From Escherichia coli (GTDB lineage Bacteria; Pseudomonadota; Gammaproteobacteria; Enterobacterales; Enterobacteriaceae): a stretch of DNA of 64,000 nt. This document shows, in pieces, positions 56,376 through 56,469 of the stretch. The number at the start of each line of letters is the position of its first letter. Positions within the stretch are counted from its first letter, which is position 1. The stretch lies in NCBI RefSeq assembly GCF_044647545.1, contig NZ_CP172818.1. One strand, written 5' to 3'. The notes beneath the pieces are model-generated. The model was given only the letters and a program-made list of their open reading frames with translations. It did no database searches and was not told where the DNA came from. The translations under genes and the position numbers were made by a program.

Positions 56376-56391
56376 GATAAAACGTTTTACC
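56376..56391. promoter_or_regulatory. MalI operator-like palindrome (imperfect copy)
   Basis: GATAAAACGTTTTACC in malI-malX divergent region. Confidence 0.6.
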
Positions 56392-56453
56392 TTTTATTTA
56401 TCTTATACCCGCTATTATCGTTGCGTAATGTGATTTATGCCTCACTAAAATTT

Positions 56454-56469
56454 GATAAAACGTTTTATC
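56454..56469. promoter_or_regulatory. MalI operator-like perfect 16-bp palindrome
   Basis: GATAAAACGTTTTATC, ~50 nt upstream of malX start. Confidence 0.65.

Follow-up and report, generated by a model that had tools for sequence, protein, structure and literature searches.

The malI and malX genes of Escherichia coli are divergently transcribed, and the spacer which separates them carries two related 16-bp sequences, one a perfect palindrome and the other an imperfect copy. The locus raises two questions: which protein recognizes these sequences, and do the two sites act separately, each on its own promoter, or together? Both are addressed here for a window of 64,000 nucleotides (the whole stretch of DNA that was analysed; assembly GCF_044647545.1, contig NZ_CP172818.1). 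The features of the locus are collected in Table 1.

Table 1. Features of the malI-malXY locus (positions in the window; conservation is the mean over the columns of an alignment of 77 distinct malI-malX spacers)
Feature	Position	Strand	Sequence or product	Basis and remarks	Mean column conservation
malI	55317..56345	minus	LacI/GalR-family repressor, 342 aa	NCBIfam NF007449, Pfam, RefSeq annotation	
Probable malI Shine-Dalgarno	56358..56362	minus	GGGAG	sequence; in the conserved block ACTCCCTG of the 77-sequence alignment; predicted function	
O_malI, MalI operator at the malI promoter	56376..56391	.	GATAAAACGTTTTACC	one mismatch; kept in 81/81 loci at no more than 2 mismatches	0.967
Probable malI -10 region	56400..56408	minus	GTATAAGAT (TATAAG/TAAGAT)	conserved block 56401-56408; predicted	
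CRP site, 22-mer	56426..56447	.	TAATGTGATTTATGCCTCACTA	core TGTGA-N6-CCTCA at 56429-56444, centre 56436.5	0.835
6-bp linker	56448..56453				0.81
O_malX, MalI operator at the malX promoter	56454..56469	.	GATAAAACGTTTTATC	kept in 81/81 loci	0.969
Probable malX -10 hexamer	56466..56471	plus	TATCTT	overlaps the right end of O_malX; invariant in 81/81 loci; predicted from its position	
malX Shine-Dalgarno	56508..56512	plus	AGGAG	sequence; 7 nt 5' of the ATG; conserved block AAGGAGTCGT	
malX	56520..58112	plus	PTS maltose/glucose EIICB, 530 aa; first gene of the operon	NCBIfam NF007509, 1120 bits, 1-530/530; RefSeq	
malY	58122..59294	plus	PatB-family C-S lyase, MalT antagonist; second gene of the operon	NCBIfam TIGR04350, 378 bits	
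Other spacer segments (outside the sites, the CRP site and the linker)					0.60-0.72

The site at the malX promoter is a perfect palindrome, made of the halves GATAAAAC and GTTTTATC, while the site at the malI promoter has a single mismatch to it (T to C at position 15); the letters are exactly those that the original prediction had described. The likeness of the two 16-mers runs two bases further, since both continue into CTT, and they are 78 bp apart, from start to start as well as from centre to centre. Both lie inside the 174-bp gap that separates the start codon of malI (56345, minus strand) from the ATG of malX (56520, plus strand), and both are inverted repeats within the 14-18 bp range and with the central CG step of LacI/GalR-family operators. 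When the whole 64-kb window is searched with one or two mismatches allowed, these two 16-mers are the only matches. When three are allowed there are five matches, compared to 0.27 expected from 100 dinucleotide shuffles of the window. The three additional ones, at positions 991, 4416 and 44388, are discarded as chance occurrences: each breaks the invariant core defined below and all of them fall within open reading frames or coding sequences.

The identity of the flanking genes is clear. MalI scores 667 bits (cutoff 310) over residues 1-342 of 342 against the NCBIfam model NF007449, 'Mal regulon transcriptional regulator MalI'. The malX and malY genes together span 56520-59294 on the plus strand, and the RefSeq product name of the second is 'bifunctional maltose regulon transcriptional repressor/cystathionine beta-lyase MalY'. 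The RefSeq gene names are those of a stretch which is 100% identical over positions 55300-58200 of the window. Several complete genomes likewise match this segment at 100% identity, and 5418 of the 5426 complete E. coli genomes contain it. The NCBIfam models and the RefSeq annotation thus agree with the predicted placement of the sites between divergent malI and malXY.

The group of Busby (Sellars et al.) reported that the malI and malX promoters each carry a 16-bp target which is bound by MalI, and that MalI represses both (PMC5543585). The supplementary oligonucleotides D71689 and D71690 of that study carry GATAAAACGTTTTATC, labelled 'MalI DNA site', and a chromosomal array of 20 copies of the site gives rise to MalI::mCherry foci in vivo (PMC5543585). 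Positions 56454-56469 of the window are identical to this sequence at every letter; by sequence identity, the perfect palindrome is therefore the experimentally validated MalI site of PMC5543585. The loss of malI function, whether the mutations are spontaneous or engineered, increases the expression of malX 7.4-fold and that of malY 6.2-fold (PMC12089948). The experiments of others have therefore shown in vivo binding of MalI to the 16-mer, repression of both promoters by MalI, and derepression of malXY when malI is lost. A sequence search of the full-text literature returned a single match, an unrelated paper on Bifidobacterium regulons.

The E. coli K-12 malX-malI operators ('MalO' in PMC5543585) include the same perfect 16-mer, next to the same genes in the same divergent arrangement. 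The two 16-mers of the window are thus the already characterised MalI operators of E. coli, and there is nothing new in the feature itself. The difference from K-12 lies around it: the window comes from a non-K-12 lineage, in which uidABC is deleted nearby and the prophage content is different. Between ydgA and uidR (52895-53229), the beta-glucuronidase operon is reduced to short pseudogene remnants, namely the 5' end of uidA and a hypothetical-protein fragment which is probably from uidC. Of 5426 complete E. coli genomes, only 85 have the contiguous deletion junction; in the listed, spread-sampled genomes other than these, the match to the query breaks at about position 53043, with uidA on one side and uidC/ydgA on the other. 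The strain from which the window comes is probably GUS-negative. A Qin-like defective prophage occupies positions 1-14200, with genes for an antiterminator, RusA, ydfU, rem, hokD, dicB, an exonuclease, an excisionase and an integrase; Rfam models locate the DicF sRNA at 10623-10674 (plus strand) and a cspA-type thermoregulator leader at 2451-2843 (minus strand). Compared to strain FDAARGOS_497, the first 12.9 kb of the window are mosaic, and positions 12900-64000 are collinear at 99.93%.

MalI has the organisation of a cognate LacI-family repressor, with an N-terminal helix-turn-helix (Pfam PF00356, residues 8-53), a hinge helix and a periplasmic-binding-protein-like effector domain (the sugar-binding/effector family PF00532, residues 65-341). 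Leucine 59 of MalI aligns with leucine 56 of LacI, the 'leucine lever', and is invariant in 80 orthologues. Conservation among these orthologues is 0.94 in the helix-turn-helix and 0.91 in the hinge, compared to 0.82 in the effector domain. The alignment with LacI covers residues 2-325 of 360 of the latter, and the NCBIfam lacI model is covered at 3-327 of 358. Since the alignment ends at LacI residue 325, MalI lacks the C-terminal tetramerisation helix, the segment which forms the four-helix bundle in LacI. No solved structure of MalI was found in the PDB, where the best relatives are other LacI-family proteins, with E values of about 1e-32 (2e-32 for the best match, a GntR/LacI-family protein from Chromobacterium).

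The conservation of the sites was assessed with a MalI protein scan of one genome per species (GTDB representatives), which gave 80 loci; together with the window, this makes 81 loci and 162 sites. The sampled taxa include Escherichia, Citrobacter, Salmonella enterica subsp. arizonae, Leclercia, Enterobacter, Lelliottia, Klebsiella, Raoultella, Kluyvera, Trabulsiella, Pseudocitrobacter and Superficieibacter, and MalI identity ranges from 69% to 99% among the 80 loci. In all 80, malX is divergent and upstream of malI, the spacer measures 165-201 bp, and it contains exactly two 16-mers that are at most two mismatches away from the palindrome. The sites and the regulator thus occur together in 80 of 80 species. 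All 160 sites found at this threshold fall in the malI-malX spacer, and none was detected elsewhere in the 541,682 bases of flanks fetched for the 80 loci. Among 5412 complete E. coli genomes, 4996 have a spacer with at least 99% identity to that of the window, and in the K-12 derivatives C600 and J53 the identity is 100%.

The 162 sites define an operator with a nearly fixed centre. In the core TAAAACGTTTTA, 10 of the 12 positions never vary (positions 3-6, 8-9 and 11-14 of the 16-mer), position 7 varies in one site and position 10 in seven, and the central CG is present in 162 of 162. Appreciable variation is seen only at position 2 (A, G or C) and at position 15 (T or C), which gives the refined consensus G-R-TAAAACGTTTTA-Y-C. 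Which of the two operators is the perfect copy depends on the clade, and both are perfect in nine loci; the 'imperfect copy' of E. coli is therefore not a conserved design feature. Besides the segments with a conservation value in Table 1, the alignment of spacers shows conserved islands at both Shine-Dalgarno regions and at a CTTATA/TTTATA block, which occupies the probable malI -10 position in all the genera aligned.

The three loci from Citrobacter sp. NCU1, R56 and Awk 4 (L007-L009) have a 23-bp insertion, TTACCCAAGCCTTCGCCAGGTAG, between the malI ATG and O_malI. It brings the malI leader to 53-54 nt and leaves the operators, the CRP site and the spacing untouched. In one complete E. coli genome (NZ_LR883000.1), the spacer is matched in two pieces and only 66% of it is covered, which suggests an insertion or a deletion that disrupts the malI-malX regulatory region. 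One copy of the malI-malX region is on a plasmid record.

These results bear on the identity of the protein. A different LacI-family regulator sharing the AANCGNTT core (e.g., GalR/GalS, TreR or CytR) could be the main ligand of the sites, MalI being incidental. The operators of this family indeed have a common palindromic architecture with a central CG, and MalI sites are similar enough to those of PurR to serve as hard decoys for it (PMC2577325). The same study places the MalI sites and the PurR sites energetically well apart, both sites accompany malI in 80 of 80 species and are found nowhere else in 542 kb of flanks, MalI binding has been observed directly in vivo (PMC5543585), and the loss of malI causes derepression (PMC12089948). 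The probability that another regulator is the main ligand is close to nil. The original prediction that a single LacI-family protein, MalI, is responsible for both autoregulation and repression of the operon is thus supported by PMC5543585 and PMC12089948, and by the co-occurrence in the 80 species.

The arrangement of the promoters can be read from the same alignment. The left half of the CRP site, TGTGAT, is conserved at a level of at least 95%. The pattern of the right half in the different species is [TC]C[GT]CA, and most genera have either TCGCA or CCGCA. An alternative reading of this site as TGTGA-N8-TCACT was dropped, because the right half conserved across species sits at the canonical 6-bp spacing. 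A scan of positions 56250-56620 for promoters and terminators returned no match to the sigma-70 consensus and no terminator-like site; a full sigma-70 match is not expected here, since CRP-dependent promoters have poor -35 elements.

Lloyd, Godfrey and Busby are said to have located, in 2010, the malX operator at -24 to -9 and the malI operator at +3 to +18, reportedly by mutagenesis rather than by footprinting. Earlier work by Lloyd et al. (2008) reportedly described one CRP site, centred at -41.5 with respect to malX and -43.5 with respect to malI. Distances of this size would suit a class II CRP-dependent promoter pair, for which a TGTGA-N6-TCACA-like site about 41.5 bp from each start is expected. 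From these positions, the transcription starts would presumably be at 56478 for malX and at 56393 for malI (an A on the minus strand). With these starts, the centre of the CRP site would be at 56436.5, exactly the centre of TGTGA-N6-CCTCA, and the TATCTT hexamer would extend from -12 to -7 of malX, as would TAAGAT (56405-56400, minus strand) with respect to malI. The position of TATCTT is consistent with the operator span that is reported for malX. O_malI is 9-17 bp away from the conserved TATAAG/TAAGAT block. It may be added that malI and malX are among the CRP targets identified by Genomic SELEX, in a study according to which each of the divergent promoters is regulated by a CRP molecule of its own (PMC3105977). 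That description is at odds with the single shared CRP site mentioned above.

The two operators differ in their pattern of variation. The right-hand TATC of O_malX and the following TT, which together make TATCTT, are invariant in 81 of 81 loci, and the mirror position, position 2, is A in 39 loci and G in 42. In O_malI, unlike the TATC end of O_malX, both outer positions are variable. The asymmetry of O_malX is the signature of a double constraint, on an operator half-site and on an overlapping, probable -10 hexamer.

All this is consistent with a mechanism in which malXY and malI are repressed independently and by steric hindrance, one MalI dimer acting at each operator; we consider it very probable that this is how the locus works. 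The dimer would grip each palindrome via its helix-turn-helix and its hinge helix, and leucine 59 would contact the central CpG, by homology with LacI and PurR. Since O_malX overlaps the putative malX -10, MalI bound there would cover this element and exclude RNA polymerase from the malXY promoter. O_malI lies just downstream of the presumed malI start, so that MalI bound there would block either the binding of RNA polymerase or its escape from the promoter, which would amount to negative autoregulation. The single CRP site between the operators (core 56429-44) would drive both promoters and activate them when MalI is absent. The two operators would act separately, without forming a loop.

The distance between the operators deserves attention in this respect. 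Of the 81 loci, 75 have a distance of 79 bp and six have one of 78 bp; the latter are the window, four Escherichia loci (L002-L004 and L006) and UBA5654; E. albertii (L005) has 79 bp. The base that is absent from the window falls in the CTTATA/TTTATA block, the probable malI -10 (56400-56408), so that the distance from the CRP site to the malI promoter is not the same in E. coli as in most other Enterobacteriaceae, the difference being 1 bp. A spacing so nearly invariant could hint at more than independence of the operators. The two sites could be bridged in a loop or a nucleoprotein complex which shuts both promoters, either by an oligomer of MalI or by MalI acting with CRP, as CytR does. The CRP site does sit between the operators, and CytR, a paralogue which works through contacts with CRP, has a model that MalI matches at E = 3.6e-36. 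However, a bridging repressor is expected to tetramerise, and MalI, which aligns with residues 2-325 of the 360 of LacI, lacks the corresponding helix. Moreover, 78-79 bp corresponds to 7.4-7.5 turns at 10.5 bp per turn, which places the operators on opposite faces of the DNA rather than in helical phase. The fixed spacing also has a simpler explanation, namely that every operator is bound in its position to its own -10 element or start, and that one CRP site anchors both promoters. Finally, the genetics of Lloyd et al. (2010) reportedly showed that either operator is dispensable for the repression of the opposite promoter. Cooperation between the operators is therefore very unlikely. A higher-order MalI-CRP-MalI complex of the CytR type, which would couple the repression of malI and malXY under some conditions, is just as improbable, and the independent steric repression of the two promoters remains the preferred reading.

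The palindromes might also act as RNA, as a hairpin in the 5' untranslated region of malI or as a terminator-like element. O_malI would be part of the leader of malI, where its halves pair in the minimum-free-energy fold, yet this fold has an energy of only -5.9 kcal/mol (z = -0.53) and 56 of 200 shuffled sequences fold at least as well; the hairpin was rejected on the basis of this z value. The scan of 56250-56620 described above contains nothing that resembles a terminator, and the changes at positions 2 and 15 do not compensate for one another. A bare array of the 16-mer binds MalI in vivo (PMC5543585). Besides, O_malX would be transcribed from neither promoter, being upstream of the malX start at its presumed position. 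It is hardly conceivable that the palindromes function as RNA rather than as binding sites for MalI.

The comparison with better-known members of the family helps to place independent repression by MalI. Like MalI, LacI uses palindromes with a central CG (lac O1, O2 and O3), and one of its operators overlaps the core promoter or start region, as O_malX probably does. LacI is a tetramer which loops the DNA between its operators, whereas MalI has no tetramerisation helix and each of its two operators belongs to a different promoter. The lacI gene is essentially constitutive, whereas MalI autoregulates. In the galR/galS and purR-type regulons, as is probably the case for MalI, a dimeric LacI-family repressor recognizes a 16-bp palindrome with a leucine lever at the central CpG, and purR is subject to negative autoregulation through an operator near the start of the repressor gene itself, as malI would be. 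The difference is that the MalI regulon appears to be confined to one divergent locus, as judged from the absence of extra sites in the window and in the fetched flanks; RegulonDB and EcoCyc presumably also limit it to malI-malX. In the CytR-CRP system (deoP2, cdd), a LacI-family repressor acts at CRP-dependent promoters with interdigitated CRP and repressor sites, as MalI probably does, but the operators of CytR are weak and contacts with CRP are needed. The MalI operators are strong, near-perfect palindromes, which are enough for binding in an isolated array (PMC5543585).

The sequence identity of the sites with the published operator, their non-randomness in the window and their strict co-conservation with malI establish what these 16-mers are. 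Their significance beyond a correct annotation is small, and the understanding of the MalI system is unchanged; the only new output is descriptive, a footprint of the operators across the Enterobacteriaceae (about 80 species) and a refined consensus. This consensus could serve for the annotation of MalI regulons in other genera, or for the design of orthogonal reporter-operator arrays. As for the biology of the organism, the MalI operators silence malX, a cryptic gene of a maltose/glucose PTS, together with malY, which encodes an antagonist of MalT, and they autoregulate malI.
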